Assembly: GCA_963773815.1 (NCBI GenBank)
Contig: CAVZCI010000017.1
Location: 891-64,890, forward strand
Length of the DNA: 64,000 nt
Direction: 5' to 3'
DNA from: an uncultured Acidobacteriota bacterium
GTDB lineage: Bacteria > Acidobacteriota > Thermoanaerobaculia > UBA5066 > DATFVB01
Shown here: positions 4,735-63,466 of the stretch, one piece after another
How positions within the stretch are numbered: the stretch's first letter is position 1
Layout: every line of letters starts with the position of its first letter
Program-made: the position numbers and the translations under genes
Notes under the pieces: generated by a model
The model's database searches: none
What the model saw: only the letters and a program-made list of their open reading frames with translations
What the model was told of the DNA's origin: nothing

Positions 4735-6090
4735 CTATGACCGTTTCGTGCCCGAAGGCTTCCGCTTCCTCGCGCTCACATGAAACAGGATCGGCGTGCC
4801 CGCGAAGTCCGCCGCGCGGCGAAAGACGTTCTCGAGGCGCCGCGAGTCGGAGAAATACAGCTTGTCCGCGCGGGACGCGACGAGCGTGAACGTGGGCGGC
4901 GAGGTCTTCGTCTGGGACGCGTACAGGACCTTCAACTGCCGTCCGGAGTCCCCTTTCGGCATGCGGCCGCGGAACTCGTTCGAGACGATGCGATTGATCT
5001 CCGCGGTCGCGAGGCGCCGCTCCCGGTTGCCCGCGACGCGCGCGATCTCGGCGGGCAGTTTCGCGACGCCCCGCCCGGTCTTTGCCGAGATCAGGAGCAG
5101 CGGGGCGAACTTCGCGAACGGGAATTTCTCGTACACGTCGAGCCGGTAGTCCTTGGAGTCCTTCGTCGTCTCGACAGCGAGGTCCCACTTGTTGCCGATC
5201 AGGAGCAGCGCCTTTCCACTCTCGACCGCGTAGGACGCGATCGTGGAATCCTGCGACGTCGGGCCCTGCACGGCATCGAACACGACGAGCGCGACGTCGC
5301 ATCGTTCCAGACGCTTGCGCGCCGCGACGACGGACAGCACCTCGGGTCCCTGCTCGGTCTTTCCCCGGCGCCGGATGCCGGCCGTGTCGATGAATCGAAA
5401 CCGGCGATCCCCGAACGACATGACGATATCCACGGCGTCGCGCGTCGTTCCGGCGACCTCCGAGACGATCGTCCTCTCGAACCCGACGATCGCGTTCAAC
5501 AGGGAAGATTTACCCACGTTCGGCCGGCCCACGATCGCGACCGCGATCTCCGCGGCCCCGGCGGGCTCCGGGGCCGATCCCTCGGCCTCCGGCTTCTTCG
5601 ACCGCCGGGCGATCTCGTCGAGGACCTCTTCGACGCCGAGGTTGTGTTCCGCGGAGACTCCGAACACGTCCGGAAACCCGAGGTCATAGGCTTCCGGCTC
5701 CCCCTCTTCCCCTTCGCGCCGGTCGATCTTGTTCGCGAGCACGAAACACGGCTTGCCCGCCTCCCGGATCACCCGCGCGGACTCCCGGTCGCCGGCGAGG
5801 ACGCCGGCCGAAGCATCGATGACGAGCAGCGCGAGGTCGCAGCTGCGGATCTCCGCGAGCGCCCGCTCGCGGACCGAGTCCGGAATCGATCCCCGGTCGG
5901 AAGGATCGAAGCCTCCCGTGTCGATCAGGAGAAACGATTCGCCGGTCGGAAGCGTTACTCTCTCTTCGACGACGTCCCGGGTCATCCCGGGCAGATCGTG
6001 GACGAGCGAGCGCCTTTTCCGGAGGATGCGGTTGAACAGCGCCGACTTTCCGACGTTCGGCCGCCCGACGATCGCGACGCGGAGACTCAC
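4735..6090 (-). CDS. der: Ribosome biogenesis GTPase Der
   Basis: Two GRPNVGKS G-domains, DTGG/DTAG, NKID/NKWD, KH-like C-terminus. Confidence 0.96.
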   Translation of the reverse strand: MSLRVAIVGRPNVGKSALFNRILRKRRSLVHDLPGMTRDVVEERVTLPTGESFLLIDTGGFDPSDRGSIPDSVRERALAEIRSCDLALLVIDASAGVLAGDRESARVIREAGKPCFVLANKIDRREGEEGEPEAYDLGFPDVFGVSAEHNLGVEEVLDEIARRSKKPEAEGSAPEPAGAAEIAVAIVGRPNVGKSSLLNAIVGFERTIVSEVAGTTRDAVDIVMSFGDRRFRFIDTAGIRRRGKTEQGPEVLSVVAARKRLERCDVALVVFDAVQGPTSQDSTIASYAVESGKALLLIGNKWDLAVETTKDSKDYRLDVYEKFPFAKFAPLLLISAKTGRGVAKLPAEIARVAGNRERRLATAEINRIVSNEFRGRMPKGDSGRQLKVLYASQTKTSPPTFTLVASRADKLYFSDSRRLENVFRRAADFAGTPILFHVSARKRKPSGTKRS

Positions 6091-6111
6091 CGCCGCGCCA
6101 ACTTCACTACT

Positions 6112-6197
6112 GTCATTGCGAGCGCCAGCGAAGCAATCTGATCCGGGGCCGGCGGGCAGATTGCCGCGGTCGGCCTCTCGGCCTCCCTCGCAATGAC
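6112..6197. repeat. GTCATTGCGAG...CTCGCAATGAC element, inverted relative to the 4644 copy
   Basis: 11-bp terminal inverted repeat; shared GATTGCTTCG/GCAATCT core. Confidence 0.8.
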
Positions 6198-6205
6198 CAA
6201 AATCG

Positions 6206-11579: not shown

Positions 11580-12508
11580 TCACCGTTCCCGGGCGATGTC
11601 CTCGATCGCCGCGAGAGTTCCGGCCGGGCGGCACGACGCCTCGCGGACGATCCACCGGGTCATCCGCGAGAGCGTGTCCCCCGGGCCGACCTCCAGGAAA
11701 TCCCGATGGGCGTCGGCGACCATCGCTTCGACGGTCTCCTTCCAGCGGGAGGGAAGGGCCGCCTGCCGGGAGAGAAGATCCGTCACTCCTTCGGCCGACG
11801 TGACGCGGGCGGCCGTGTGGCCCGCATAGAACGGGATGCCGGGAGCTCGAATCGAGGCGCACCGGGCCACGACGGGGGCGACCCGGAGGCAGACGTCGTC
11901 CATGAGCGGGCTGTGGATCGGCCAGGTCATCGGAAGCCGGACGGCCTTGAGGGCGCGGCCGGAGAAGGCGTCCAACGCGGCGTCCACGCCGGCCTCCGTG
12001 CCCGTCAGAACGAGCTGCGTCGCCGCGTTCACGTTTCCGATCCACACGAAGAGCCCCGCGGAGCGCAAACGGGACGCACTCCTCCTCGACGGAGTCCGCC
12101 GAGAGCCCGATGACCGCCCCCATCGCCCCGCGCACGCCCTGCCGGTCCGATTCCGAGAGCACGGCGAGAAGCACGGCCAGCGCGTCGTCGAACGAGACCG
12201 CGCCCGAGGCGACGAGCGCGGCGTAGTTGCCGAGCGAATATCCCGCGACCGCGGCCGGGACGACGCCTCGACGCGCCAGCTCCCTTCCCGCCAGCACCGA
12301 AACGAGGAAGACGCGCCGGCTGCGCCACGCGGTTCCGGCGCCATTCCGGCTCCTTCCCCTCGAACAGGGCCGCGGCAAGATCGGCGCCGCACTTCTCCGA
12401 AGTTCGGTCGAAGAGCTCTCGCGCCTCCGGCACGGCGTCGTAGAAGTCCTTTCCCATGCCGCCGAATTCGGCGAGCTGACCCGAAAAAAGGAAGGCGGTC
12501 GAGCTCAT
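11580..12508 (-). CDS. fabD: ACP S-malonyltransferase-like (frameshifted)
   Basis: FSGQ..GMG, AGYSLG, WPIHSPLM, EVGPG spread over three frames. Confidence 0.8.
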
Positions 12509-12515
12509 CGCAGCG

Positions 12516-13445
12516 TCACGCCTTTCTGCTGACCTCACCCCCGGCCTTCGGCCACCCCCTCTCCGTATTACGGAGAGGGGGACGGGGGGTGAGGTCCAAC
12601 TCTTCGATCGCGTGCATCCGCTCGGATGCGAGGAGGCGGTCCAACCGCTTCCCGAGGTTGACCCACGTCCCGAAGTGCGCGAGCCGGGACAGCGCCGGCA
12701 GGCCCGTCAGCGCCGGAGGGTTCTCGTCGAGCTCCCAGGGATGAAACGTGAAGATCGGGGGCGCGCCGGCGGCCCGAAAGCGGTCGGCGTTCTTCCGGAC
12801 GAGGCGGAACGGAACGCTTCGAAAGGCCCACGAGCCGCCGAGGAGGACGGTCGTGAAATACGCCCTTCCGGACAGGGGCGGAAACTCCAGCAAACGGTCG
12901 CCTCCTTCGAAGACGACGGCGGAGGGATAAGGATCGTTGCCGGTGCGGCCGATCAGCGGCACCGGCGTGACCGAGGAATCGTAGGCGAACCCCTCCTCCG
13001 CGAGCACGCGAAGGGACGGATCCGACAGGCTTCGGATCGACCATTCCGGCGCGCGGAAGCCGAGAAGCTTTTTTTCCGCGAGGGGTTCCAGGAGATCCCG
13101 GCCCGCGCGAAGGTCGGCGCGGAACTGTTCCTCCGTCATCTCCGTGCACCGGACATGCGCCATCCCGTGGAAAGCGATCTCGTGGCCCGCGCGGGCGACC
13201 GACCGCACGAGCCGGGGGTATTTGCTCGCGACCCAACCGAGGACGAAGAACGTGCCGCGGTGGCTCCCGCGGGCGAGACGCTCGAGCAGCGCCTCCGTCA
13301 CCGCCTCGACGCGCGATTCGAACCGACCCCACCTTCGCGCGTCGCCGAAGTAATCGTCACCGCAGACGCAGAACCACTCCTCCAGATCGACCGTGAGAAC
13401 CGACGGAGGGGATTCGAACCGCGCCCGCGAGACGTCCGGGCTCAC
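12516..13445 (-). CDS. Polysaccharide deacetylase (DUF3473 type)
   Basis: [37 protein letters not shown]. Confidence 0.88.
12531..12596. repeat. 66-bp branched palindrome inside the deacetylase 3' end
   Basis: GACCTCACCCC...GGGGTGAGGTC; near-identical to 32318-32383. Confidence 0.85.
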
Positions 13446-16336: not shown

Positions 16337-16686
16337 ATGCTCGAATACGTCCCGATCCTGATTCTGATGGGCTTCGCGGCTGTCGTGGCGACGGCGCTGC
16401 TGACGATTTCGGCCCTCCTCGGCCGGCATGTGCGAACCCGTCGAAAGCTCTCGACTTACGAATGCGGAATGCCCCTGCTCGACAAGTCGCGCAAGCGGAT
16501 CTCGGTCAAGTTCGCGGTCGTCGCGATGGTCTTCATCCTCTTCGACGTCGAGATCGCGTTCGTCTACCCCTGGGCCATTCTGTTCGCGCGGCCGGGTGGG
16601 CTCTCTTCGCCGAGATGATCGTCTTCCTCGCGACGCTCGGCGTCGGCTACGCCTACATCTGGAAGAAGGGCGCGCTGGACTGGTGA
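16337..16686 (+). CDS. nuoA: NADH-quinone oxidoreductase subunit A (frameshift near 16600)
   Basis: YECG, FILFDVE, YIWKKGALDW. Confidence 0.93.
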
Positions 16687-16717
16687 AGGAGCTGGACTGA
16701 ATGAAAGCGCTCCGCTC

Positions 16718-17284
16718 GTGAAAGAGCTCCGCTATGCGTCGCGAGCCTCGGGGCGGCCGTTCGCGTTCACGGAAGGGGAATCGCGCGAGATCGAGTCGCT
16801 GCTGAAGCGATATCCGACGAAGCGCGCCGCCCTTCTTCCCGTTCTCTGGATCGTCCAGGAACGGATGCGCTGGGTTCCGGCCGAGGCCGTCGCCGAAGTG
16901 GCGCGCGTGCTGGAGCTCTCGGAGGCCTACATCGACGGCGTGCTGACGTTCTACACGATGTACAGCCTTCACCCGATCGGCCGGTACGACCTGCAGTTCT
17001 GCACGTCGATCTCCTGCCACCTGAACGGCGCGGAGGGCCTGCTCGAACGCTGCGAGAAGAAGCTCGGGATCGGAGTTGGCCAGACGACGGCGGACGGCAG
17101 GTTCACGATCACGGAGGTCGAGTGCATCGCGGGATGCGACCGCGCGCCTTCGATGCAGGTCAACGACAAGTACCACGAGCCGATGACGGCCGAGAAGCTC
17201 GACGAGCTGCTTGAGCGGCTCTCGAGACAAGCCCAAGGGGCGGAAGAACAGCAAGCCCTCAGGGCGAAAGACCAGAAGGCCTGA
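16718..17284 (+). CDS. nuoE: NADH-quinone oxidoreductase subunit E
   Basis: TFYTMY, CTSISC, VECIAGC. Confidence 0.93.
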
Positions 17285-18566
17285 TGCCCTACGAAAAGGT
17301 GCTCCTGGCGCGCGTCGGCCGCGAAAACTCCCGGTCGATCGAGACCTACATCCGCGACGGGGGGTACGAGGCGTGGAAGAAGATTCTGCGCGAAAAGCCC
17401 GACCCGAACGAGATCGTCGAGACGGTCAAGAAATCGGGCCTTCGCGGGCGCGGCGGCGCGGGCTTTCCGACCGGCGTGAAATGGTCGTTCATCCCGAAGG
17501 ACACGAAGGGAAAACCGGACTACCTCGTGCTGAACGCGGACGAATCGGAGCCCGGAACGTTCAAGGACCGGCTCCTGATCGAGCAGGACCCGCACCTCGT
17601 CCTCGAGGGGATGGCGATCGCGGCGTACGCGATCCGGTGCCGCACGGCATACATCTACATCCGCGGCGAGTTCTGGGACGGCGCCAGGATCCTGAACGAG
17701 CGATCCGGGAAGCGTCCGCGGCGGGGTTGCTCGGCGGAGACGCCGGCCTCGACATCTACGTCCACCGCGGCGCGGGCGCCTACATCTGCGGCGAGGAAAC
17801 GGCGCTGCTGGAATCGCTCGAAGGAAAGCGCGGCCAGCCGCGCGTCAAGCCGCCGTTCCCGGCCGTTTCCGGAGCGTTCGCGTGCCCCACGATCGTGAAC
17901 AACGTCGAGACGATCGCGTGCGTGCCGTTCATCCTGAACCGCGGCGCGGAATGGTTCGCGAAGATCGGGCGAAACGAAAAGAACACCGGGCCGAAGCTCT
18001 ACTGCCTTTCGGGACACGTCAACCGGCCCGGAGTGTACGAGGCGCCGATGGGCTTGCAGCTGAAAGACCTGATTTTCGGCTCCGATTTCGGACGCGGCAT
18101 GGCCGGAGGCCGCAAGGTCAAGGCGGTCATTCCCGGGGGGGCCTCCGCCGCGATGCTGACCGCCGCCGAGATCGAGGACTGCCCGCTCGACTTCGACGGA
18201 GTGGCAGCGAAGGGCTCGATGCTCGGATCGGCCGCGATCGTCGTGATGAACGAGGACACCTGCATCGTTCGCGCGGCGAAGAACCTCGCGAAATTTTTCG
18301 CACACGAGTCGTGCGGCCAGTGCACCCCGTGCCGCGAGGGCTGCCCGTGGCTCCTCAAGGTGCTGACGCGCCTGGAAGGGGGCGAGGGCCGGTCCGAAGA
18401 CATCGATCTGCTGCTGTCGATGGCGAAGCAGATGAACAACGGAATGACTCTGTGCGTCTTCGCCGACGCGGCGGTCGGCCACGTCCTTTCGACGATCCCG
18501 AAATTCCGCGGCGAATACGAAGCGCACGTCGCGAACGCCGGCTGCCGCGCGGGAGCGGTGGCGTGA
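17284..18566 (+). CDS. nuoF: NADH-quinone oxidoreductase subunit F (frameshift near 17700)
   Basis: [36 protein letters not shown]. Confidence 0.95.
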
Positions 18567-18679
18567 GGGGAATCGCTCGCCGGGGCGGGTGGCGCGGGGC
18601 GAGACTCCCTTTTGCCGCTCGCGACGCCGGTGTAGCAAAGTCCTCAGGCTCGCGGCGAGCGGAAAAGAGGAGCGAGCCT

Positions 18680-20351
18680 GTGACAGGACCCGCCCCGGTC
18701 GAGCGAGGGTTTTCGAATGCCGTGAAGATCACGTTCGAGGACAAGGCCACGACGACCGTCGAGGTTCCCGACGGCACGAACATGATCGAGGCCGCGAAGA
18801 TGGCCGGGATCGAGATCCCCCACTTCTGCTACCACCCGCGTTTCTCCGTCGTCGGCCAGTGCCGGATGTGCCTCGTCGAGGTCGACGGCATGCCGAAAAT
18901 CCAGGCCGCCTGCACGACTCCGATCAAGGACGGCATGGTCGTCAAGACCGGCTCGGCAAAGACGAAAGAGGCCCAGAAGGCGACGATGGAGTTTCTCCTG
19001 ATCAACCATCCGCTCGACTGCCCGATCTGCGACCAGGCCGGGGAGTGCAAGTTGCAGGACAACTCCTTCGGGTACGGGTTCCAGGCTTCGCGCTACGACG
19101 AGCGCAAGAAGCAGTACGAGGGCTACTCCCGGACCAAGATCGGCCCCCGCGTCATCGCGCGACATGACCCGCTGCATCCTCTGCACGCGCTGCATCCGCT
19201 TCACGCAGGAGATCTCGAAGACGTCCGAGCTGACGTTCCTCGACCGGGCGGGACAGACGCTCGTCTGGACGCACGAGGGCCGCGAGCTGGACAACGACTG
19301 GTCGGCCTGCGCGGCCGACGTCTGCCCCGTCGGCGCGCTCACCGTCGAGGAGTTCCGATTCCGACAGCGCGTCTGGTACCTCAAGAAGACGCCCTCCGTC
19401 TGCCCCGGATGCGACATCGGCTGCAACAACTCCGTCGAATCGCGCGGAGAGACCGTTTTCCGTTACATGCCGCGGCTCAACCCCGAGGTCAACGACTACT
19501 GGCTCTGCGACTACGGCCGATTCCTCTCTGAATCGCTGAACGAGCGGTCGTATTCGCGAGCCCTCCTGCGCGAGAACGGCGAGCGGAATCCCGCGACGTG
19601 GGACGTCGTCCTCGACCGCGTCGCCGCGGAGATCAAGAAGACGATCGCGGAATCGGGGCCGCAGGCGATTTTCGCGCTCGGCTCCGCGAACCTCTCGAAC
19701 GAAGAAAACTGGCTGCTGCGGAAGATCTTCCGCGACACCCTGAACGTTCCGAACCTGGACGTGACGGCCGACGCCGACCGGGTCCGGCGCATGCCGTCGA
19801 AGAACGGATGGATCGAAAGCTCGGGCACGGCTTCCCCGAACGAGCGGGGCGCCCGGGAGATGGGCGTCGGGCCCGGATCCGGAGGCCGGACGCTCGCGGA
19901 CCTCTGGGCCGGGAAGTTCGAGCCCGAGATCCTCTACGTTTCCGACGCGGCGTTTTCGCGCCTCGCGGACGACCCGGAGAAGGTCGCGATCCTCCGCAAG
20001 GCCCGGCTCCTCATCGTCCACGCCCGAACCGAGAACGCGCTGACCCGCGCCGCCGACGTCCTCCTGCCGTGCGCGTCCCTGGCCCAGAAGGACGGGACTT
20101 TCACGAGCCGGTTCGACCGCGTGCAGCGCTTCGAGCGCGCGATGCTCCCGAAGCCCCCCGTCAAGGCAGACTGGGAGATCCTCCTGCTGCTCGGAATGCG
20201 GTTCGGATTCGGAAACCCCGAATGGAACCCCCTGACGATCTTCTCGGAAATCGCGCGCGAGGTCCCCGGATACTCGGATCTCGACTTCCGCGAACTGGAG
20301 GGGGGCTCGACGATGAAGAAGGGCCTCTTCGTTTCGGTGGGCGGGCTGTGA
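18680..20351 (+). CDS. nuoG: NADH-quinone oxidoreductase subunit G, short form (frameshift near 19160; start uncertain)
   Basis: PHFCYHP, CRMCLVE, NHPLDCPICDQAGEC, RCILCTRC, CPVGAL. Confidence 0.9.
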
Positions 20352-21400
20352 CGGCCGTCGACTGGATCATCCTGGCCGTCCGGCCGCTCGCGCCGGTCCT
20401 CACGACGCTCCTTCTCGTGCCGATCATCCTGTGGGTCGAAAGGCGCGGCGCCGGCCTGATCCAGGACCGGCCCGGCCCGAACCGCGTCGGGTTCTTCGGC
20501 TGGAGCGCGTTCGGGCTCGGGCAGCCGCTCGCCGACGCCTTGAAATTTTTCTTCAAGGAGGACGTGACGCCCGACAACGTCGACGTCCTGCTCTACACGC
20601 TCGCGCCGTGGATCGTGATGTTCTCCGCGCTCGTCGCGTTCGCGGTGATCCCTTACGGCCCGACGTTCTCCGTCCGGGGGCACGAGATCAAGATGATCGG
20701 CGCCGACGTTCCGATCGGAGCCCTCTTCATTTTCGCGATGGCCGGAATGTCCGTCTACGGGATCGTCCTGGCCGGCTGGTCGTCGAACAACAAGTACTCG
20801 CTCATGGGCGGCTTTCGCTCCGCGGCGCAGGTCATCTCCTACGAGCTCGCGATGACGACGGCCGCGGCGGGAGTGTTCCTGACTTCCGGCTCCTTCCGCC
20901 TCTCCGAGGTCGTCGCGTCGCAGCAGGGACGCTGGCTCGGCTTTCTCCCGAGGTGGAACGCGGTGCCGCAGTTCTTCGGATTCGTGATCTTCACGATCGC
21001 CGCGTTCGCGGAGACGAACCGCGTGCCGTTCGACCTCGCGGAGGCGGACGCGGAGCTCGTCGCCGGTTACCACACCGAGTATTCCTCTTTCAAATTCGCC
21101 GCGTTTTTCATGGCCGAGTACGTCGCGATGACGGTCGCGTCCGCGTTCATCGTCACGATGTACCTCGGCGGGTGGTCGATCCCCTTCTTCCACCCGCAGG
21201 GAATTCTCGGGGCGCTGATCTCGGTCGCCGTCTTCGCGGCGAAGATCGCGTTCCTGATGTGGGTCTTCATCTGGGTTCGCTGGACGCTGCCGCGTTTCCG
21301 CTACGACCAGCTCATGGCCGTCGGCTGGAAAGTGCTGCTCCCGCTCGCGTTCGCGAATCTCCTCTGGGCGGCCCTGCTCGTCCGGATCGGGGCTCTGTGA
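20348..21400 (+). CDS. nuoH: NADH-quinone oxidoreductase subunit H
   Basis: QDRPGPNRVG, QVISYE, AETNRVPFDL, PRFRYDQLM. Confidence 0.95.
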   Translation: MTAVDWIILAVRPLAPVLTTLLLVPIILWVERRGAGLIQDRPGPNRVGFFGWSAFGLGQPLADALKFFFKEDVTPDNVDVLLYTLAPWIVMFSALVAFAVIPYGPTFSVRGHEIKMIGADVPIGALFIFAMAGMSVYGIVLAGWSSNNKYSLMGGFRSAAQVISYELAMTTAAAGVFLTSGSFRLSEVVASQQGRWLGFLPRWNAVPQFFGFVIFTIAAFAETNRVPFDLAEADAELVAGYHTEYSSFKFAAFFMAEYVAMTVASAFIVTMYLGGWSIPFFHPQGILGALISVAVFAAKIAFLMWVFIWVRWTLPRFRYDQLMAVGWKVLLPLAFANLLWAALLVRIGAL

Positions 21401-21903
21401 ACGCCGCCCGTCTCGCGTTCGACGTCGCCGGAGCGGTCGCGATCCTGTTCGCCGCGGTGATGGTCGTCCACCGGAACCCGATCAAGAGCCTCCTCGCGAT
21501 CGTCGTTTCGTTCTTCGCGATCGCCGCCGGCTTCGTGCTCCTCTCCGCGCCGTTCCTCGCGGTCATCCAGGTCATCGTCTACGCGGGGGCGATCCTCGTC
21601 CTGTTCCTGTTCGTCACGATGCTGCTGAACCTCGACACCGAAGAGGAGGCGCGCGACCCGCGATTCCTCCAGCGCCTGTTTTCTCTCGCGGGCATCGTCG
21701 CGTTCGCCGCGTTTCTTCTCGGCGCGGTCCGCCGGTCGGGCTCGGCCGTCCGGCCGTCCGGCCTCCCGCCGGCGACCGGGGAGATCGCTCCCCTCGCGCG
21801 CGCGCTGTATTCCCGGGCCGCTCTCCCGTTCGAGGCCGTTTCGATCCTCCTGCTCGCCTCGCTGACGGGCGCATACCTGCTGATGCGGCGGGGAGACCGG
21901 TGA
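21397..21903 (+). CDS. nuoJ: NADH-quinone oxidoreductase subunit J
   Basis: QVIVYAGAILVLFLFV. Confidence 0.92.
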   Translation: MNAARLAFDVAGAVAILFAAVMVVHRNPIKSLLAIVVSFFAIAAGFVLLSAPFLAVIQVIVYAGAILVLFLFVTMLLNLDTEEEARDPRFLQRLFSLAGIVAFAAFLLGAVRRSGSAVRPSGLPPATGEIAPLARALYSRAALPFEAVSILLLASLTGAYLLMRRGDR

Positions 21904-21910
21904 GCGGGCG

Positions 21911-22216
21911 ATGAGGGTTCCGCTGACGGACGTCCTCTTCGTTTCGGCCGCGCTGTTCTGCCTCGGCCTCGCGGGGGCGCTGCTGCGGCGCAACGCGATC
22001 ACGATCTTTCTGTCGATCGAATTGATGCTGAACGGCGCGAACCTGGCTCTCGCGGGAATCGGGCAGGCCGTCGGCGGGTATTCGGGCCAGATCGTCGTAT
22101 TCTTCGCGATCGTCGTCGCGGCCGCGGAAGCGGCCGTCGGCCTCGCGATTTTCGTGAACGTCTTCCGCCACAACGAGACGATCGACGTGAACAAGATCAA
22201 CCTCCTGAAGTGGTGA
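21911..22216 (+). CDS. nuoK: NADH-quinone oxidoreductase subunit K
   Basis: SIELMLN, AAAEAAVGLA. Confidence 0.95.
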   Translation: MRVPLTDVLFVSAALFCLGLAGALLRRNAITIFLSIELMLNGANLALAGIGQAVGGYSGQIVVFFAIVVAAAEAAVGLAIFVNVFRHNETIDVNKINLLKW

Positions 22217-22220
22217 GCGG

Positions 22221-24161
22221 ATGAGCGTTCCGCTGTGCCTGATTCCGCTGCTCCCCCTCGCGGGGTTCCTCCTGTGCGGCCTCTTCGGCCGCAAGCTCGG
22301 GAAGGGCTTCGTGACGGCGTGCGGAGCGGGATCGGTCGGGCTCGCGACCGTTGCGGCTTACGCGCGCCTCGTTCCCTATGCCGCGGGCGTTTTCGCGGGC
22401 AACGCGGCGCCCGTCGTCGAGCGGTACGCTTCGTGGATCCGCGTCGGCGGCTTCTCGGTCGATTTCGCGATGCGGCTGGACCCCCTTTCGGCCGTCATGC
22501 TCTCTTTCGTGACGTTCGTCGGCTTTCTCATCCACGTGTACTCCGTCGGATACATGCACGAGGACGAAGGGTACTGGCGGTTCTTCTCGTACCTGAACCT
22601 CTTCATGGTCGCGATGCTGACGCTCGTCCTTGCCGACAACTTCCTCCTCCTCTTCGTCGGCTGGGAGGGCGTCGGGCTGTGCTCGTACCTCCTGATCGCG
22701 TTCGACTACCTGAAGGAGGATTCCGCGCGGGCCGGCCGCAAGGCCTTCGTGACGAACCGCGTCGGCGATTTCGGGTTTCTCCTCGCCCTGTTCCTCATTC
22801 TCGGAAGGTTCGGCTCTCTCGACTTCGGAAGGATCTTTCCGATGGCCGCCGCGGAGCCCCTCCGGTTCGCTCCGGCGACGACCGCGATCGCTCTGCTGCT
22901 GTTCGTCGGCGCCTGCGGCAAGAGCGCGCAGATCCCGCTCTACGTGTGGCTCCCCGACGCGATGGCGGGCCCGACGCCCGTCTCCGCGCTGATCCACGCG
23001 GCGACGATGGTCACGGCGGGCGTGTACGTCGTCGTCCGCAGCAACGTCCTGTTCCGCCTCTCTCCCGGCGCGATGGCGCTCGTCGCGATCGTCGGGGCGG
23101 CGACCGCGATTTTCGCGGCGATCGTCGGAACCGCCCAGGACGACATCAAAAAGGTCCTCGCCTATTCGACGATCTCGCAGCTGGGATACATGTTCCTCGC
23201 GTGCGGCGTCGGGGCTTTCGTCGCCGGGATGTTCCACGTCCTCACGCACGCCTTCTTCAAGGCCCTCCTGTTCCTCGGGGCCGGGTCCGTGATCCACGCG
23301 ATGGGCGGCGAGCAGAACACTCTCCGCATGGGGGGCCTGCGAAAGGCGCTGCCCGTGACGTTCTGGACGTTTCTCGCGGCGACGCTCGCGATCGCCGGAA
23401 TCCCGATCTGGGCGGGGTTCTTCTCGAAGGACGAGATCCTCGGCGCCGCGTTCGCGAAGAGTCCCGCGCTGTGGGCCGTCGGATTCCTCGCGGCGGGTAT
23501 CACCTCGTTCTACATGTTCCGCCTCCTCTACCGGACGTTCTTCGGCGAGTTCCGCGGGACCGAAGAGCAGCGCCATCACCTCCACGAGTCGCCCGCCGCG
23601 ATGACGGTGCCCCTCGCCGTCCTCGGCGTCCTTTCGACGGTCGGCGGATTCCTCGGGCTGCCGCGGCTGCTCGGCGCACGCGCGAACCTCTTCCACCGCT
23701 TCCTCGACGGCATCGTCCTGCCGATGGCCGGCGCGGCCGAGCCCGCGGAGCTGTCCCGAGGCGCGGAAATCGCGCTGATCGCCGCGTCCGTCGCGATCGC
23801 GGGGGCCGGCTGGCTCGTCGCGAAGCGTTGCTACGCCGGCCCGGCCGCCGAGGATCTTCCCGGCCGGTTCACGCGGCGTTTCCCCGGTTTCGCGGGCCTC
23901 GTGCGCCGGAAGTTCGCGATCGACGAGCTCTACGAGCGGATTCTCTACCGCCCCTTCCGCGCCCTCTCGCGCGGTTTCTGGAAGATCGTCGACGTGCTCC
24001 TGATCGACGGCCTCATCAACGCGGGGTCCTTCCTCGTCGAGCTCGCGGGCGATCTCCTCCGGTTCTTCACGACCGGAAACGTCCGCAATTACGCGCTCAC
24101 GTTCCTGCTCGGGATCGTCGCCCTGCTCGCGTACCTCGGATTCGGAGGCCTGGTCCGTTGA
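22221..24161 (+). CDS. nuoL: NADH-quinone oxidoreductase subunit L
   Basis: GWEGVG, GKSAQ..WLPDAMAGPTPVSALIHAATM. Confidence 0.96.
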   Translation: MSVPLCLIPLLPLAGFLLCGLFGRKLGKGFVTACGAGSVGLATVAAYARLVPYAAGVFAGNAAPVVERYASWIRVGGFSVDFAMRLDPLSAVMLSFVTFVGFLIHVYSVGYMHEDEGYWRFFSYLNLFMVAMLTLVLADNFLLLFVGWEGVGLCSYLLIAFDYLKEDSARAGRKAFVTNRVGDFGFLLALFLILGRFGSLDFGRIFPMAAAEPLRFAPATTAIALLLFVGACGKSAQIPLYVWLPDAMAGPTPVSALIHAATMVTAGVYVVVRSNVLFRLSPGAMALVAIVGAATAIFAAIVGTAQDDIKKVLAYSTISQLGYMFLACGVGAFVAGMFHVLTHAFFKALLFLGAGSVIHAMGGEQNTLRMGGLRKALPVTFWTFLAATLAIAGIPIWAGFFSKDEILGAAFAKSPALWAVGFLAAGITSFYMFRLLYRTFFGEFRGTEEQRHHLHESPAAMTVPLAVLGVLSTVGGFLGLPRLLGARANLFHRFLDGIVLPMAGAAEPAELSRGAEIALIAASVAIAGAGWLVAKRCYAGPAAEDLPGRFTRRFPGFAGLVRRKFAIDELYERILYRPFRALSRGFWKIVDVLLIDGLINAGSFLVELAGDLLRFFTTGNVRNYALTFLLGIVALLAYLGFGGLVR

Positions 24162-25684
24162 GCTCGATCCCGCACCTGCTGACCTGGGTCATCTTCCTGC
24201 CGGCGGCGGGAGCGGCGCTGATCGCGATTTTTCCCGCGCGTGCATCCGTCGAGATCAAAACGGCCGGCATCGTCATCTCCGTCGCGACGTTTCTCCTTTC
24301 CCTCGGGTTCTGGACGGGATTCGACCCGCGAACGGCGGGATTTCAATTCCAGGAGCGCGCGGCGTGGATCCCGGCGTTCGGCATTTCGTACTCGATCGGC
24401 ATCGACGGGATTTCGCTCCTGCTCGTCCTGCTGACGACGCTGCTCACGCCGATCGCGCTGCTGTTTTCGATCGGGCACGTTCGGCAGAGCGTTCGCGGCT
24501 TCACCGCGTCGTTCCTCGTTCTCGAGACGGGGATGCTCGGGTCCCTCGCGTCGCTCGACCTGGTGCTGTTCTATTTCTTCTGGGAAATCATGCTCGTGCC
24601 GATGTACTTCATCATCGGGATCTGGGGCGGCAAGCGGCGAATCTACGCGGCGGTCAAATTCTTCCTGTTCACGATGGCGGGTTCGCTCCTGATGTCGCTC
24701 GGCATCCTGTTTCTCGCGATCCAGTACCACCGGGCGACCGGAACGTGGACCTTCGCGCTGCAGGACTTCTACCGGCTGAGCTTCCCGATGCCGGCCCAGA
24801 TGTTGCTGTTCTTCGCGTTCTCGATCGCCTTTCTCGTGAAGGTGCCGGTCTTTCCGCTGCACACGTGGCTGCCCGACGCGCACACGGAGGCCCCGACGGC
24901 CGGCTCGATCATCCTCGCGGGCGTGCTGCTGAAGCTCGGAGTGTACGGGTATTTGCGGTTCTCGCTTCCGCTGTTTCCCCATGCCGCGCTGAAATTCGCT
25001 CCGTGGCTCGCCCTGCTGTCCGTGATCGGGATCGTCTACGGGTCGATGGTCGCCTTCGCCCAGACGGACATGAAGCGTCTCGTCGCTTACTCCTCGGTCG
25101 CGCACCTGGGACTCGTCATGCTCGGCATCGCGGCCCTGACGAGCCTTTCGACGACCGGCGCGGTCCTCCAGAGCGTGAACCACGGCCTTTCGACGGGGGC
25201 CCTCTTCCTCCTCGTCGGCGTCCTGTACGAGAGGCGCCACACACGGGAGATCGATGCTTACGGCGGCATCGCGCGCGTCGTGCCGGTCACCGCGACGCTC
25301 TTCGTCATCTCCGCGCTCGCCTCGATCGGTCTCCCCGGCTTGAACGGATTCGTCGGCGAGTTCCTGATCCTCAACGGAACGTTCAACGCGCCGCACGTCC
25401 CGAAGTGGTGGGCGGTTGCGGGGACGGCCGGGATGGTGCTGTCCGCGCTCTACCTCCTGACGCTCGTTCAGCGCGTCTTCTGGACTCCCCTGAAGAACGA
25501 GGAGAACAGGAACCTGCCGGACATCCGGCGCTCCGAGCTGATCGGCGCCGTCGCGCTCATCCTCTGCATGGTCTGGATCGGCCTCGCGCCGAACTTCTTC
25601 CTCGACAAGATCCACGGGTCCGTCGACGAGCTCCTCGCGTTCGTGCATTCGAAAGCCGCGATGCCGCTGAGGCCCGGCCCATGA
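24158..25684 (+). CDS. nuoM: NADH-quinone oxidoreductase subunit M
   Basis: KVPVFPLHTWLPDAHTEAP, AYSSVAH. Confidence 0.95.
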   Translation: MSSIPHLLTWVIFLPAAGAALIAIFPARASVEIKTAGIVISVATFLLSLGFWTGFDPRTAGFQFQERAAWIPAFGISYSIGIDGISLLLVLLTTLLTPIALLFSIGHVRQSVRGFTASFLVLETGMLGSLASLDLVLFYFFWEIMLVPMYFIIGIWGGKRRIYAAVKFFLFTMAGSLLMSLGILFLAIQYHRATGTWTFALQDFYRLSFPMPAQMLLFFAFSIAFLVKVPVFPLHTWLPDAHTEAPTAGSIILAGVLLKLGVYGYLRFSLPLFPHAALKFAPWLALLSVIGIVYGSMVAFAQTDMKRLVAYSSVAHLGLVMLGIAALTSLSTTGAVLQSVNHGLSTGALFLLVGVLYERRHTREIDAYGGIARVVPVTATLFVISALASIGLPGLNGFVGEFLILNGTFNAPHVPKWWAVAGTAGMVLSALYLLTLVQRVFWTPLKNEENRNLPDIRRSELIGAVALILCMVWIGLAPNFFLDKIHGSVDELLAFVHSKAAMPLRPGP

Positions 25685-32284: not shown

Positions 32285-32317
32285 TTAGAACCCGCGATCG
32301 AATTCCCTCGTCGGGTC

Positions 32318-32383
32318 GACCTCTCCTCCGGCCTGCGGCCACCCCCTCTCCGTAATACGGAGAGGGGGACGGGGGGTGAGGTC
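32318..32383. repeat. 66-bp branched palindrome, copy 2
   Basis: Near-identical to 12531-12596. Confidence 0.85.
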
Positions 32384-50448: not shown

Positions 50449-50787
50449 GTGGGCTTCCCGGAGCGGCTCCGAAATGCGACCGGCTTCCAGTGGGACGCCG
50501 GAAATCTCGAAAAGAGCTCCCGGGCGCACGGGGTCGAATTCTGGGAATCGGAAGAGATCTTTTTCAATCAACCGTTCGTCGTTTTGCGAGACGAGAAGCA
50601 TTCGACAAACGAAGAACGGTATTTCGGGCTTGGCAAGACGGATCTCGGGCGGCACTTGCTCGCGGTCTTCACCCTCCGCGGAACCGAGATCCGAGTCATC
50701 TCCGCACGCGACATGAGCCGCAGGGAAAGGACGGTATTCGAAAAGCATGAAAAAGAAGGTCAGGAAGGTTCCGAAGTTCCGGAGTGA
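50449..50787 (+). CDS. BrnT-family toxin
   Basis: FQWD, HGV.F, HSTNEER, IRVISAR. Confidence 0.88.
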   Translation: MGFPERLRNATGFQWDAGNLEKSSRAHGVEFWESEEIFFNQPFVVLRDEKHSTNEERYFGLGKTDLGRHLLAVFTLRGTEIRVISARDMSRRERTVFEKHEKEGQEGSEVPE

Positions 50788-51028
50788 GGCCGAGGAGCGC
50801 CGGTTCTGGTCGAGTCACGACTCGACCGAGTACCTCGACTGGTCGAACGCCAGCTCGATACATCTGACGAAGCTGCGGCCGACGCTGAAAACGATCTCGC
50901 TTCGGCTTCCAGCCGCCTTGATCGCGGAGCTCAAAGTTCTCGCGAACCGGCGTGACGTGCCATACCAGTCGCTTCTCAAGACATTTCTCGCCGAGCGAGT
51001 GCGGGAGGAGTGGAAAGCGAGCGCGTAG
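50747..51028 (+). CDS. BrnA/CopG-like antitoxin
   Basis: PKFRSEAEERRFW..HD, ISLRL, VPYQSL. Confidence 0.88.
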   Translation: MKKKVRKVPKFRSEAEERRFWSSHDSTEYLDWSNASSIHLTKLRPTLKTISLRLPAALIAELKVLANRRDVPYQSLLKTFLAERVREEWKASA

Positions 51029-57280: not shown

Positions 57281-57462
57281 GCCGCCGCGCGCTGGCTGAT
57301 GGGGCCGGAGGTCGACCCGTAGACGAAGATGGATCCCCTGAAGAGGTTCTTCTTCCAGGAGATTTAGCGCACAGCACTCACCGCGGTGAGTGCGAAGCGC
57401 TAAATCCCGAGCGAGCCGGCCGCCGCGAAGCGACGGCGCCAGACCTAGCGAGGGATCGCTTC
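57281..57462. repeat. ~180-bp direct repeat, copy 2 (decayed gene end)
   Basis: Copy of the GAPDH-like 3' end with TGG changed to TAG, plus hairpins. Confidence 0.92.
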
Positions 57463-57563
57463 GGGTCGTAAGACACACCACCAGGTCAGATCGCTTCGTC
57501 GCTCCGCTCCTCGCAATGAACAGGGTCGCGAGCGCTCGAATGGCGGTTAGAATCTCTCCGCAC

Positions 57564-60078
57564 ATGGAACCCACCCTGAAGCCGCCCGCCATCACGACGC
57601 CTTCGTCGATCCGTCCCGGCCTCGCGGAGCGGTTCTTCGCGTTCGTCGCCGAATCCCACCCGTTCGCGCTCGATCACGCTTCGGTCGTCTTCCGAAACCT
57701 GCTGCGGCGCGAGGGGGGCGACCCGGGCCGCGAAGCCGGCCGGCTCGACGCGCTCCGAGCGCCGCTTTCGCGCGCGCTCCGCAAGGCGATCAGCCTCGCG
57801 CCCCCGGCGGGAACGACCGAGACGACTCCCGGCGTCTCCGCGGCGTCGAGAATGTCGGCCGCCGTCGACGGGCTCGTCGACGCGTGCGACGGGTTTCTTC
57901 GCCGAGAATCGCTGTCCGCCTCACTCACGGCGGAGGAACGCCTGGAGATCCTCCGCGGCATCGTCCTGACCCGCGCGATCGACAACCGCCTCAAGGCGTT
58001 CTTCACGGGCAGCGAGGTCCGGTACCGGGGCGTCGCTTTCCAGGGGAAGGGTTTTCGCTCGCTCGGCCAGGAGGCGATCTACGCCGCCGCGACGCGCCTG
58101 CGCCGGGGGGAAGCGTTTCGAGAGAACGGCGAGTGGAAGGGCGACGTCGTCGCTCCGCTCATCCGCGACCTCGGCATCGCGCTCGCGATGAATCCCGGGC
58201 CGGAATTCGTCCGGATGGTGCTCAACGCCCAGATGGGGAAAGACGGTTCTCCGATGGACGGCAAAGACCTCCACATCGGGGACTTCGCGCACGGCGTGCT
58301 TCCCGCCGCCGCCCCGCTCGCGATTTCGTCGCTGACGGTCGCCGGCCTCGCGCTCGCGTTCGCCCGGGAAGGGGAAGGGCGGGTCGCCGTCTCGCTCATC
58401 GGCGAGGGAGGCTCCTCGCTCGGCGAGTGGCACGAGGCGATCAATCTCTGCGCCGCGCGCCGCCTGCCGGCGGTTTTCTGCGTCCAGAACAACCAGACCG
58501 CGCTCTCGACCCCGCCGGCCGAGCAATCGGCCGTGCGGGCGTTCGCGGACAAGGCGGCGGGTTACGGGATCCCCGGGATCACGCTCGACGGCACGGACCC
58601 CGACGCGATCGCGGCCGCGTTCGCCTGGGCGGCGGAGCGCGCCCGCGCGGGGAAGGGCCCCGCGCTGCTGGAGCTCATTTCGATGCGCATGTGCGGCCAC
58701 GCCCACCACGACGACATGCTCTATCTCGGCCGCGACCCGCAGCCGGCCTGGACGTATCCGGCGCTTTCGGAATCGGGCTACGCGGCCCGCGAGCTCTACG
58801 AGTACTGGTCGCGGCGCGACCCGATCGCGCTGTACGCGGCCCGCCTCTCCGACGAGGGCATCCTCGGAGGGGGCGACCTTTCGCGCTTTCAGACCGAGGC
58901 GGACGCCCTCGTGGAACGAGAAGCTCGCGCCGTCATCGAGGCGCCCTGGCCCGAGCCGGCGAGCGCGGGGGAAGGGGTTCTCTCGAACGAACCGCGACGA
59001 ACCCGCGTCGAGCCGCTCGACCCGGCCCGTCGCCGGAGCGCTCCGGACCGGGAAATCGAGGTCGAGCCCGCTCCCCCGTTCGATCCGAAGGGAAGCACGT
59101 TCCTCGATGCCGTCGCGCTCGGAGTCGGCGATGCTCTCGCCGCCGACCCGCGCGTCTTCGTCTTCGGCGAGGACGTGGGCGGAAAGTACGGGAACGCGTT
59201 CCTGCTCCTGCGCCCGCTGCTCGAGAGGTTCGGAGACCGCATCCTGAATTCGCCGCTCTCCGAGGGAGCCGTCCTCGGCGCCTGCATCGGCGCCGCGCTG
59301 GCGGGGCAGCGGCCGGTCGGCGAAATGCAGTTCAACGATTTCGTCGCGACCGGCTTCAACCAGCTCGTCAACAGCGCGGCGAAGATCCGGTATCGATGGG
59401 GCGGCCGTTCGGGAGCGGTGTTCCGATGGTCGTACGGATGCCGTGGGGCGGGCTGCGGCACGCCGGCCCGTACCACAGCCAGAACACCGAAGCGTGGTTC
59501 TACCGGACTCCCGGCCTGAAGATCGTCGTCCCGTCGACTCCGCACGACGCGCGCGCGCTGCTCGCTTCGGCCGTCGCCGATCCCGATCCCGTGCTCTATT
59601 TCGAGCACATCGCGCTGTACCGCGATCCCCGCGTCAAGCAGGCCCTTTCCCCGAGGCCCCGGAGCCGATCCCGATCGGAAAGGCGGCGTTGAGGCGGAAA
59701 GGGAAAGACCTCGCGATCCTCAGTTACGGCGCCTACGTCCACGTCGCGATGCGCGCGGCGGCCCGGCTCGCGGAGGAAAACATCGAGGCCTCCGTTCTCG
59801 ACCTGCGAAGTCTCGCGCCGCTCGACCGCGGCGCGATCCTCGACCTGGCCAGCGCGTGCAACCGGGTCCTGATCGTCCACGAAGACACGCGCACCGGCAG
59901 CGTCGGGGAGAGCATCGCCGCGATCATTCAGGAAGAGGCGTTCGAGCACCTCGACGCCCCGATCCGCATCCTCGGCGCGCTCGACACGCCCGTGCCGTAC
60001 TCTCCCCCGCTCGAAGAGTTCTTCCTGCCGGGCGAAGACGAGGTCGTCCGGGCGGCGCAGCTGCTCGCGAAGTACTGA
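57564..60078 (+). CDS. Fused E1 alpha/beta 2-oxoacid dehydrogenase (frameshifts near 59405 and 59650)
   Basis: GEG..NN TPP motif, RMCGH, FGEDVG, EMQFNDF, HSQ, DLRSL.PLD. Confidence 0.88.
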
Positions 60079-61662: not shown

Positions 61663-61722
61663 TCGATGCTCCGCCCGGTCGGGACGAAGGCGGGCGGTAT
61701 TCTGGTCGGCACGAAGGCGATT

Positions 61723-62451
61723 CTACACGGACGGGGACGCGGAGGCGGGCGACCACCACTTCAGGATCCGCTCGACGTACTGCACCGTCTCCCGATAGGG
61801 CGGCACGCCGCCATAGGAATCGACGGCGTTTTCGCCCGCGTTGTAGGCCGCGAGAATAAGCGCGGGTTGATTCTCGAACCGGGCAGCGAGCTCCTTGAGG
61901 TACAGGACCCCCCCGCGGATGTTGGCCGTCGGATCGTAAGTGCGGCGCACGCCGAGCCGGGCGGCCGTCGAGGGCATCAACTGCATCAGGCCGCGGGCCC
62001 CCTTCCGCGAAACGGCGCGCGGGTCGAAGTTGGACTCCGCCTTGATCACGGCGGAGACGAAAGCCGCGTCGAGGTTCGCTTTCCGGCACTCCGACTCGAT
62101 CACCGAGTCGTACCGGGACTGGAACAGGGGCTTCCGCGCGGCCCTGTACGACAGGTCGGCCGTGACGGTCCGCGGGAGGGCCCGGATCTGGGCGGGCGGG
62201 GGCGCGACCTCGTCGTCGACGAAGCGCTCCACGAGCAGGATCGACGTCGTGTAGCCGCCGCCCCCGGGAAGGTCGAGGGAGACGTCGTCGCCGTCGACGT
62301 GGTAGCCCGTGACTTTGACGACCCGGCCGTCGTTGAAGATCGCGAGCTTCGCGAAAGCGGGCCGGGCGGCGAGGCCCAGCGCGGCCAGAAGGAGCCACGA
62401 GCGGAGAAACGCTGAATTCGCCGTACTTTTCGAGGTCATGGTCGAGATCAT
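61723..62451 (-). CDS. Lytic transglycosylase (SLT domain)
   Basis: AES.F, GARGLMQLMP, AAYNAG, ETVQYV. Confidence 0.9.
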   Translation of the reverse strand: MISTMTSKSTANSAFLRSWLLLAALGLAARPAFAKLAIFNDGRVVKVTGYHVDGDDVSLDLPGGGGYTTSILLVERFVDDEVAPPPAQIRALPRTVTADLSYRAARKPLFQSRYDSVIESECRKANLDAAFVSAVIKAESNFDPRAVSRKGARGLMQLMPSTAARLGVRRTYDPTANIRGGVLYLKELAARFENQPALILAAYNAGENAVDSYGGVPPYRETVQYVERILKWWSPASASPSV

Positions 62452-62494
62452 GGACACGTGCCCCGACAACGCTTTCGCCATGCCGAATATTCCC

Positions 62495-63466
62495 TCATCG
62501 CGCCCTCGGATGAAAGTCGTCGTAAACCTGCCGCAGGCGGGTGCGGGAGACGTGGGTGTAGATCTGGGTCGTCGCGATGTCGGCGTGTCCGAGGAGCATC
62601 TGGACCGACCGAAGATCGGCGCCGTGCTCGAGCATGTGGGTCGCGAAGGAATGCCGCAGGACGTGCGGCGAGATCCGGGAGCGGATGCCGGCGGCGCGGG
62701 CGTAGAGCTCGATCAGTTGCCAGAAACGCTGGCGCGTCATCGGCCCGCCGCGTCCCGTCAGGAAGAGAAATTCCGACCTCTCGCGGTCGAACGCGGGCCG
62801 GGCCTCGCGCAGGTACCGGCCGATCCATTTTCGGGCCTCGCGGCCGACCGGCACGAGCCGCTCCTTGTTGCCCTTTCCGACGACGAGGAGCGTTCCCCCC
62901 TCCAGATCGGCGCGCTCGGTCTCCAGCCGCACGAGCTCCGAGACCCGCAGTCCGGACGCGTAGAGCGTCTCGATCATCGCGCGGTCGCGAAGCCCCCGCG
63001 CCGTGGAAGCGTCGGGCGCCGCGAGCAGCGCGTCGATCTCCGCCGGCGAAAGCACGTGCGGAAGAGCCGACCAGGTCTTCGGGCTCGTCAGCTGCGCGGA
63101 GGAATCCTCCGAAACGATGCCCTCCGCGGAGCAATAGCGGAAGAACCCGCGAAGCGAAGAGAGGAGACGCGCGGCGGAGCGGGCCGAGAGGCCCGCGGCG
63201 CGGCGGATCTGGACGTATCGCACGAGATCCTGCCGGACGGCCTTCTCGAGGTCCCGGCGCCCGGCGGCGAGATGGCGCCCGAACCCGTCGAGGTCGCGCA
63301 CGTACGATTCGATCGTGCGGCGCGAAAGGCCGCGCTCGACGGAGAGGTGGTCGGCGTAGCCGGGCAGGAACCGGCGGAAGAACTCGGTGGCCGGCGCGGC
63401 CGGTTCAGGAGACCGCGAGGGTTCTCGAGGGGGATTTTTCTTTGCAGATTTCAAGGATCTCTTCAT
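62495..63466 (-). CDS. xerD: Tyrosine recombinase XerD (start uncertain)
   Basis: LYASGLRVSEL, GKGNKER, HVLRHSFATH, LGHAD..TTQIY. Confidence 0.93.
   Translation of the reverse strand: MKRSLKSAKKNPPREPSRSPEPAAPATEFFRRFLPGYADHLSVERGLSRRTIESYVRDLDGFGRHLAAGRRDLEKAVRQDLVRYVQIRRAAGLSARSAARLLSSLRGFFRYCSAEGIVSEDSSAQLTSPKTWSALPHVLSPAEIDALLAAPDASTARGLRDRAMIETLYASGLRVSELVRLETERADLEGGTLLVVGKGNKERLVPVGREARKWIGRYLREARPAFDRERSEFLFLTGRGGPMTRQRFWQLIELYARAAGIRSRISPHVLRHSFATHMLEHGADLRSVQMLLGHADIATTQIYTHVSRTRLRQVYDDFHPRAR

Follow-up and report, generated by a model that had tools for sequence, protein, structure and literature searches.

Small Open Reading Frames Bridging Stop and Start Codons Between Genes of a High-GC Acidobacteriota Lineage: Possible Scars of Opened Junctions

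Introduction

This study deals with a 64,000-nucleotide (nt) stretch of DNA from an uncultured Acidobacteriota bacterium (the window, G000:C17:891-64890, where G000 is the genome it comes from) and with small open reading frames (ORFs) that span the spacers between some of its co-directional genes. Such a bridge, as defined here, starts at the upstream gene's stop codon, in an RTGA overlap or abutting it, and ends with a TGA that overlaps the next start codon (xTGA). Four-base overlaps (RTGA, or -4 overlaps) make up about a fifth to a third of the co-directional junctions in this 66% GC lineage, and translational reinitiation is described, in the accessible part of PMC10666635, as needing overlaps or very short distances. 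The locus raises the question of whether bridges are accidents of a stop-poor genome, relays that hand ribosomes from one gene to the next, or traces of how the junctions came apart. An original prediction, made from the sequence of the window, had favored a relay through throw-away peptides. The bridges themselves were partly confirmed and the relay interpretation was partly supported by our analysis: only bridges of 30 nt or less exceeded any null model, short spacers carried a phase bias, and five junctions of the window are overlapping or abutting in relatives, suggesting that bridges may be scars of coupled junctions that were pushed apart.

Materials and Methods

G000 (3.24 Mb, 66% GC, 20 contigs, completeness rating of 78.84%) was compared with two genomes of the same genus (G001 and G002) and with samples of two near-complete, one- and two-contig genomes, namely G004 (1.6 Mb, same family, one contig) and G016 (1.2 Mb, other family, same order), referred to here as the clean genomes. 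Genes were called with a home-made program combining a hexamer Markov model, dynamic programming and scores for Shine-Dalgarno (SD) motifs and start type. A Pfam run on 115 window ORFs named the genes rnr, der, fabG, acpP, a polysaccharide deacetylase (deac), nuoA/E/F/G/H/J/K/L/M/N, mlaE/F, Nudix, PHP, xerD, and SLT. Two null models were used. In the shuffle null, the spacer interior was scrambled while spacer length and both ends were fixed; in the ends-permuted null, upstream ends, spacers and downstream ends were swapped among junctions of one length bin (300 permutations). Conservation was scored on 861 conserved adjacent pairs from three genome comparisons, and the ancestry of xerD>SLT and nuoA>nuoE (upstream>downstream gene) was compared in G002, G001, and G004 sequence only.

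Results

Bridge ORFs in the Window

All eight single-ORF bridges of the window (Table 1) proved exact, in frame and open, each closing with a TGA that overlaps a downstream ATG or GTG. Their upstream end is an NTGA (ATGA or GTGA) at the stop codon, except at mlaE>mlaF, where an ATG abuts the stop. Ends of the coupling type (RTGA, TGATG, or the two codons within a few bases) were found on both sides of all eight bridges and of the nuoA>nuoE chain. The original prediction had placed bridges at many co-directional junctions; its single-ORF cases stood, but nuoA>nuoE needed correction, as the first ORF of that chain is the tail of NuoA. The micro-ORFs foreseen as MTLR, MSGR, and MSG also exist, but five bridges (fabG>acp, deac>fabD, nuoJ>K, nuoK>L, and Nudix>PHP) start with GTG and not ATG, so that these peptides read VTLR (deac>fabD), VSGR (nuoJ>K), and VSG (nuoK>L). 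For xerD>SLT, our caller set the SLT start at 62481, which leaves a 13-nt spacer and no bridge, but the ATG at 62451 on which the predicted bridge depends is common to G000, G002, and G001, and the 48-nt register of the junction is the same in G002 and G001.

The apparent nuoA stop (16616-16618) comes after a frameshift near 16585, where G002 has one more base, and the Pfam profile PF00507 matches NuoA at positions 3-68 in one frame and 61-99 in the other. The real gap between nuoA and nuoE is 16687-16717 and is crossed by two micro-ORFs, the second of which (MKALRS) has AAGGAG 9 nt upstream of its ATG. The fabD gene, downstream of the deac>fabD bridge, is itself split between frames. Frame-split genes in the window were nuoA, nuoF, nuoG, fabD, dnaB (three pieces), a radical-SAM gene, and an E1 dehydrogenase (regions 16337-20348, 11583-12538, 33430-36090, 38339-41053, and 57390-60075). 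Essential genes split in this way, together with the completeness and contig number of G000, suggest assembly indels rather than biology.

Table 1. Bridge ORFs, repeats and related features of the window (aa, amino acids; a dot marks features without strand).
Feature	Position	Strand	Remarks
rnr>der bridge ORF, 40 aa	6087..6209	-	ATG overlaps rnr TGA; TGA overlaps der GTG
MITE-like (miniature inverted-repeat transposable element) repeat	6106..6197	.	inverted ends GTCATTGCGAG...CTCGCAATGAC; inside rnr-der spacer; 12 copies in G000
fabG>acpP bridge ORF, 14 aa	10786..10830	-	single-ORF bridge
deacetylase>fabD micro-ORF, VTLR-stop	12505..12519	-	single-ORF bridge
rep66 copy	12531..12596	.	66-nt palindromic repeat; deacetylase ORF reads through
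True NuoA C-terminus	16615..16686	+	not a bridge; displaced by frameshift near 16585
Micro-ORF VKELD-stop	16683..16700	+	GTG overlaps true nuoA TGA; first extra copy of duplicated junction
Micro-ORF MKALRS-stop	16701..16721	+	ATG abuts preceding TGA; TGA overlaps nuoE GTG at 16718
nuoJ>nuoK micro-ORF, VSGR-stop	21900..21914	+	single-ORF bridge
nuoK>nuoL micro-ORF, VSG-stop	22213..22224	+	GTG from conserved Trp codon plus TGA
mlaE>mlaF bridge ORF, 39 aa	32281..32400	-	old mlaF start beside mlaE stop, through rep66, onto new ATG
rep66 copy	32317..32383	.	inserted in former 5' end of mlaF
Nudix>PHP bridge ORF, 82 aa	36482..36730	-	passes through ~220-nt dispersed repeat
~220-nt dispersed intergenic repeat	about 36504-36732	.	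17 copies in G000, 72-83% identity
xerD>SLT bridge ORF, 16 aa	62448..62498	-	valid only with SLT start at ATG 62451

Frequency of Bridges

Automatic calls gave 6 bridges among 33 gapped co-directional junctions in the window and 76 among 1336 (5.7%) in the whole of G000. The window ties for the maximum among 158 sliding 64-kb windows (counts of 0 to 6), and the earlier figure of 9 bridged junctions in roughly 24 thus reflects an extreme window and hand-chosen starts. The shuffle null, a check proposed along with the original prediction, spoke against it, since observed counts were reproduced up to 60 nt in all three genomes. The observed and expected numbers were 16 vs 16.7 (1-15 nt), 11 vs 10.0 (16-30 nt), 7 vs 6.0 (31-60 nt), and 5 vs 4.7 (61-150 nt) in G004; 10 vs 8.2, 8 vs 6.4, 9 vs 7.5, and 6 vs 6.3 for the same bins in G016; and 31 vs 29.4, 9 vs 6.8, 11 vs 9.6, and 15 vs 6.7 in G000. 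The excess at 61-150 nt in G000 consists of stop-free repeats and missed gene fragments, and several of its long bridges are missed genes or parts of genes, with 3 of 36 peptides matching real proteins of relatives.

The ends-permuted null gave another picture at short distances. In G004, 16 bridges were observed vs 6.8 expected at 1-15 nt and 11 vs 4.3 at 16-30 nt, values reached in 0 of 300 permutations each; in G016, the counts were 10 vs 4.0 (1/300) and 8 vs 4.0 (4/300). G000 also showed an excess at 1-15 nt (31 vs 14.4, 0/300), and its 16-30 nt bin (9 vs 6.3) was reached in 43/300 permutations. No excess over this null was seen in spacers above 30 nt in the clean genomes. As the shuffle null was matched, spacer interiors are not kept specially open; as the ends-permuted null was exceeded at 30 nt or less and the shuffle null was not, the signal resides in the combination of both ends with spacer length, and only bridges of 30 nt or less exceed any null. 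In the two clean genomes, bridges exceeding about 30 nt occur no more often than expected from composition. GC-rich spacers and repeats contain few stops, and we read two of the long bridges in the window as chance.

Spacer Phase and the Base Before the Stop

Spacers of 1-15 nt were unevenly distributed by length mod 3 (classes 0/1/2), with 53/95/64 in G000, 23/61/28 in G004, and 22/39/14 in G016. When the three genomes were pooled and both genes had to score at least 25, the distribution was 46/114/57, and it became uniform above 30 nt. A length of 1 mod 3 is the sole phase that puts RTGA and xTGA in frame, and the bias is the one predicted for short spacers when spacer length mod 3 was proposed as a check on the relay. 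The phase excess occurs only after TGA (66/186/123 vs 86/98/66 for TAA and TAG). We also observed a three-base periodicity of short co-directional spacers (1, 4, 7, 10, and 13 nt), tied to TGA stops.

For phase-1 spacers of 1-30 nt that follow a TGA, the frame beginning one base ahead of the stop closed exactly at the next start in 78/107 junctions with A, G, or T before the stop and in 29/79 with C (three genomes pooled). The closure is associated with the base before TGA (odds ratio [OR] 4.6, p 1e-6). The same comparison by genome gave 26/32 vs 14/27 in G004, 16/22 vs 4/12 in G016, and 36/53 vs 11/40 in G000. The association survived filters for score, ATG-only starts and the presence of an SD motif (OR 2.5-6.7); significance was not reached in the clean genomes when only ATG starts were kept (OR 2.5, p 0.11), and without the ATG-only filter these genomes gave 41/54 vs 18/39 (p 0.005). 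It was confined to one position, the base before TGA, among 9 tested and was absent in phases 0 and 2. If it holds up, the phase effect looks like a high-GC, TGA-linked one. A model in which bridges are only relics of the upstream tail, frameshifted with the old frame left open, was tried and rejected: it predicts 57% start-like bases regardless of closure, and we observed 73% at closed junctions and 37% in the rest.

History of the Junctions

Five window junctions (rnr>der, deac>fabD, nuoA>nuoE, nuoJ>K, and mlaE>mlaF) are -4 RTGA overlaps or abutting pairs in relatives and were opened in this lineage by repeat insertion, tandem duplication or indel. At rnr>der, the stop lies right at the der start in relatives (TTGA in G002, ATGA in G003, GTGA in G004, and TTGA in G005). 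A MITE-like insertion following a conserved GGAG-ATGA is common to G000 and G001, and both are bridged, with differing internal indels in the element and differing der start codons. The mlaE>mlaF spacer is 0 (G001), -1 (G004), or 2 nt in relatives; only in G000 does rep66 sit in the old mlaF head, a variable 5' end, where the old ATG reads through the repeat and closes on the new ATG. For deac>fabD, the junction is GTGA in G002, G000 has rep66 in the deacetylase tail, and the micro-ORF follows the ancestral frame of that tail. The rnr-der locus was found twice in G002 (C6:153995-154990 and C10:5198-6192), at 88-90% identity to the query, and G002 is rated 4% contaminated.

In the nuo cluster, nuoA>nuoE is a GTGA overlap in G004, with 0 extra copies of the junction, while extra degenerate copies of 17-19 nt (16683-16721 in G000) number 2 in G000, 2 in G002, and 3 in G001. 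Each extra unit spans the old overlap and is a tiny ORF that closes on or beside the following start. Tandem arrays at this junction were noted in relatives at loci L191 of G002 and L193 of G001. Of 19 genomes, 16 have a -4 overlap at nuoJ>K; bridges of 7 nt occur there in G000 and G002 and one of 28 nt in G001, the G000 frame resembling the ancestral NuoJ tail. In our reading of the alignment, the nuoK>L bridge is present in 17 of 19 genomes, at spacer lengths of 1, 4, 7, 10, or 13 nt. Its GTG is dictated by the conserved Trp codon, and the spacers vary in length partly through start migration and in-frame changes at the NuoL N-terminus; length changes were estimated at no fewer than 5 in multiples of three vs 2 others, which is not significant. 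The conservation of nuoK>L is not counted as evidence of constraint.

Two other bridges probably arose by chance. Nudix>PHP, as aligned, has no bridge in G002, G003, G004, or G005; a different repeat fills the 93-nt spacer of G002 and the frame stops 12 nt early, and PHP has GAGGTGA 5 nt upstream of its ATG. The fabG>acpP bridge is kept in G001; in G002, one additional nucleotide in the spacer abolishes it and no harm is apparent. The spacer has TAGAAT and AAGGA motifs of its own.

Across the conserved pairs, when one genome had a bridge the other had a -4 overlap in 12/57 comparisons and a bridge in 12/57. Thirty-six junctions were -4 overlaps in one genome and open in another while keeping RTGA and xTGA; 21 were in phase 1, 5 in phase 0, and 10 in phase 2. 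The listed 'skeleton' junctions of G004 and G016 (n = 58) showed no general duplication signature by eye, and we rejected tandem duplication as a general origin, as it was clear only at nuoA>nuoE and in one 8-nt case.

Repeats at Bridged Junctions

Only three long bridges, together with the rep66 copy next to deac>fabD, involve a dispersed repeat family. The rep66 element is 66 nt long, with nested inverted repeats, ends GACCTCACCCC...GGGGTGAGGTC and a core of 27 nt matching itself on both strands; 18 copies, 81-100% alike, occur in co-directional and convergent spacers of G000. Both rep66 and the rnr-der element fit the REP (repetitive extragenic palindrome)/MITE type, being short, with palindromic or inverted ends and many intergenic copies. 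Spacers of every type (convergent, divergent, and co-directional) contain copies of the three repeat families, which face either way with respect to the neighboring genes. The ~220-nt repeat gave 22 hits in G001 and 12 in G002, and the insert in the Nudix-PHP spacer differs in each relative examined.

Discussion

Origin of the Bridges

What we observed is the sequence pattern, the phase bias and the junctions' ancestry; from these we lean, with somewhat more confidence than doubt, towards reading bridge ORFs as scars of tightly coupled junctions that were pushed apart and passed through a frame filter. A coupled RTGA junction would be opened by a repeat insertion, by tandem duplication of the junction or by a small indel in the upstream tail or downstream head, so that the former start codon, or else the former frame, is left behind at the upstream stop. 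Read in the downstream gene's +1 frame, a TGA made up of the new start codon and a following A would be the earliest stop available. The remaining phases would produce a gene fusion, an in-frame extension of the downstream protein (with no visible gap), or an old frame overrunning the next start. Fusions and overruns should be lost, and the surviving junctions would be enriched for spacers of 1 mod 3 bounded upstream by RTGA and downstream by xTGA, each forming a micro-ORF in contact with both genes. The phase filter could come from ribosomes that end gene A, restart on the overlapping RTG, finish at the TGA and restart on gene B. By analogy with known coupling, such a ribosome relay via termination-reinitiation is plausible, and it would be useful because coupling efficiency is reported, in the portion of the literature available to us, to drop steeply with distance.

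Several results weigh against this reading or against the relay itself. Spacer interiors show no extra openness, the shuffle null being matched to 60 nt in three genomes and to 150 nt in G004 and G016. Closure by the base before TGA was 49/61 for G, 13/20 for T, 14/26 for A, and 29/79 for C; ATG is not the best, and this order (G>T>A>C) differs from that of start-codon strength. Bridge starts are 64% G, 18% A, and 17% T, and -4 overlaps are 47% A, 42% G, and 11% T. An SD motif of the GGTGA type embedding the stop may contribute to the base preference. SD motifs of 4-5 bases precede 46% of bridged genes vs 42-47% of others, and the loss of such motifs that we looked for before bridged genes was not seen. 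Bridges are retained between genomes at a rate (12/57) like that of other short-spacer classes (22/139 and 26/157) and far below that of -4 overlaps (358/567). Phase 0 is not excluded, as it holds 12 of the 20-plus junctions opened from -4 overlaps with spacers of 1-30 nt. Only 4 of 27 co-directional spacers holding a repeat copy are bridged (rep66 2/13, the other two families 1/7 and 1/7), and 3 of these 4 are the window's own. All genome-wide statistics depend on the home-made caller, which under-calls G000, assigns about 15% TTG starts and makes imperfect start calls; many short spacers in phase 2 are probably miscalled -4 overlaps (51/56). Poor conservation, the kept SD motifs, the order of bases and the unprotected interiors speak against the relay as a maintained adaptation. 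The earlier claim that insertions persist only if they keep the relay in frame is supported in part by the five opened junctions, by the phase bias of short spacers and by the phase 1 majority among junctions opened from overlaps (21 vs 5 and 10), but not by the repeats, nor by Nudix>PHP and fabG>acp, whose bridges are not kept in the closest relative, G002.

Could chance alone produce what we observed? In a genome of 66% GC, with TGA as the main stop and A as the commonest base after starts, short GC-rich frames stay open, and a hand search in an extreme window would find many bridges without history or function. The match to the shuffle null, the position of the window at the top of 158, the unbridged Nudix>PHP of G002-G005, the break of fabG>acp by 1 nt in G002, the few bridged repeat copies, and the missed genes or fragments among long G000 bridges are all consistent with this. 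It fits poorly with the ends-permuted null, exceeded at 30 nt or less in 5 of 6 genome-by-bin tests (0-4/300), with a phase bias tied to TGA stops, with an association specific to the base before the stop, and with five window junctions that are overlaps or abutting pairs in relatives; we consider pure chance an improbable explanation. Faulty assembly and gene calls offer another route, as indel errors could cut gene tails so that the true frame runs on to an overlapping stop. G000 is incomplete and in 20 contigs, seven window genes are frame-split, the first 'bridge' after nuoA was NuoA's own tail, and the same caller covers 72% of G000 with coding sequence vs 85% of the G004 sample and 84% of the G016 sample. 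An artefact of this kind nevertheless seems highly improbable, given that the same signals occur in near-complete G004 and G016, that G002 and G001 carry the same micro-ORFs at nuoA>nuoE, nuoJ>K, and xerD>SLT, and that a crude count of split genes differs little (41/1343 in G000 vs 23/1055 in a reverse control).

A maintained adaptive relay would imply that micro-ORFs are under ongoing selection and that the downstream gene depends on ribosomes handed over to it. Evidence pointing this way includes the nuoA>nuoE chain of 2, 2, and 3 units in G000, G002, and G001, the bridging of nuoJ>K at both 7 and 28 nt, the shared register of xerD>SLT in three genomes, and nuoK>L, bridged in 17 of 19 genomes at five spacer lengths that are all 1 mod 3. 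By eye, no SD-like motif lies less than about 15 nt from the new mlaF, der, and nuoE starts. In addition, phase-1 RTGA without a closing stop is rarer than expected, with start-like bases at 29/79 non-skeleton junctions vs about half elsewhere. Low retention between genomes, SD motifs that are not lost, a base order that is not that of start strength, and spacers not depleted in stops argue in the other direction, as do the start migration behind part of the nuoK>L variation, its non-significant bias to multiples of three and the non-independence of the relatives. From these sequence data, ongoing selection of this kind would seem unlikely. Somewhat less unlikely is a broader proposal for high-GC bacteria, whereby a junction that loses its 4-base overlap would survive mainly if a chain of micro-ORFs keeps ribosomes flowing; selection would then have made relay ORFs of 2-10 codons a general means of repairing coupling, and they would impose on short operon spacers a three-base periodicity overlooked in pooled surveys.

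Should the phase filter prove real, short spacers in operons would not be free to vary; reinitiation would link their length mod 3 to the base preceding the stop and to the one that follows the next start. This could improve start-codon prediction, explain the tolerance of insertions and junction duplications inside essential operons such as nuo, and provide a simple sequence signature for translationally chained genes. If bridges are scars only, they would still date and type the events that opened overlapping junctions.

Relation to Known Systems

The closest known case is that of mycobacterial interspersed repetitive units (MIRUs), for which the review PMC12548453, in its accessible part, cites Supply et al. 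1997. As described there, MIRUs place extra DNA at a co-directional stop/start junction, their small ORF is coupled at -4 and their insertion is thought to spare downstream translation. Three long bridges of the window likewise pass through dispersed repeats. However, the repeats studied here occur in all kinds of spacers and carry a bridge in 4/27 co-directional ones only, which led us to reject a MIRU-like behavior for the three families, and the enriched bridges are micro-ORFs of 2-10 codons without a repeat family. The same part of PMC12548453 describes short ORFs that 'deliver' ribosomes, and the axe-txe minigene paper PMC8708949, as far as its accessible text goes, is related to such minicistrons. 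The ORF at 16701-16721 appears to have all the parts of a ribosome-delivering minicistron, with its own SD motif and start and a stop overlapping the next start: MKALRS has AAGGAG upstream and ends on the nuoE GTG. Unlike the described case, it lies between two operon cistrons and arose by junction duplication.

Termination-reinitiation coupling at -4/-1 junctions (accessible parts of PMC10666635 and PMC6728339) uses the same signals, RTGA and TGATG, which occur here twice in a row, but those papers, as far as available, treat gene pairs with no intervening throw-away ORF. No phase analysis of positive spacers was found in the available part of PMC10666635, nor was a distance distribution in its supplementary files S3, S7, and the first part of S4. 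Stops embedded in SD motifs (GGTGA, TGAGG), described in the accessible part of PMC2784483, would explain the favored G before TGA and the TGA stops in spacers of a few bases. The same portion of this 2009 survey reports no phase bias in co-directional spacers of 530 pooled genomes, whereas our three high-GC genomes show one. A throw-away ORF coupling two genes is already in print for MIRUs and ribosome-delivering short ORFs. The genome-wide signature in short spacers may be new; we did not find it described in the literature searched, as far as its text was accessible, which is not proof of absence.

Other Features of the Window

The nuo cluster (16337-27141) has the order A-E-F-G-H-J-K-L-M-N, followed by a Rex-like regulator. 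The genes nuoB, C, D, and I are not between nuoA and nuoE, and contig C14 has a weak second match to a nuoJKL query. A release-factor gene (37303-38169) matches the PCRF profile only from ORF position 72, which fits an upstream programmed +1 frameshift of prfB or another assembly indel. Three two-gene modules were also observed, namely a FitA-like RHH gene with PIN, BrnT with a CopG-type antitoxin, and DUF433 with DUF5615; the coordinates listed for the three are 27874-28496, 50449-51025, and 3249-4061.

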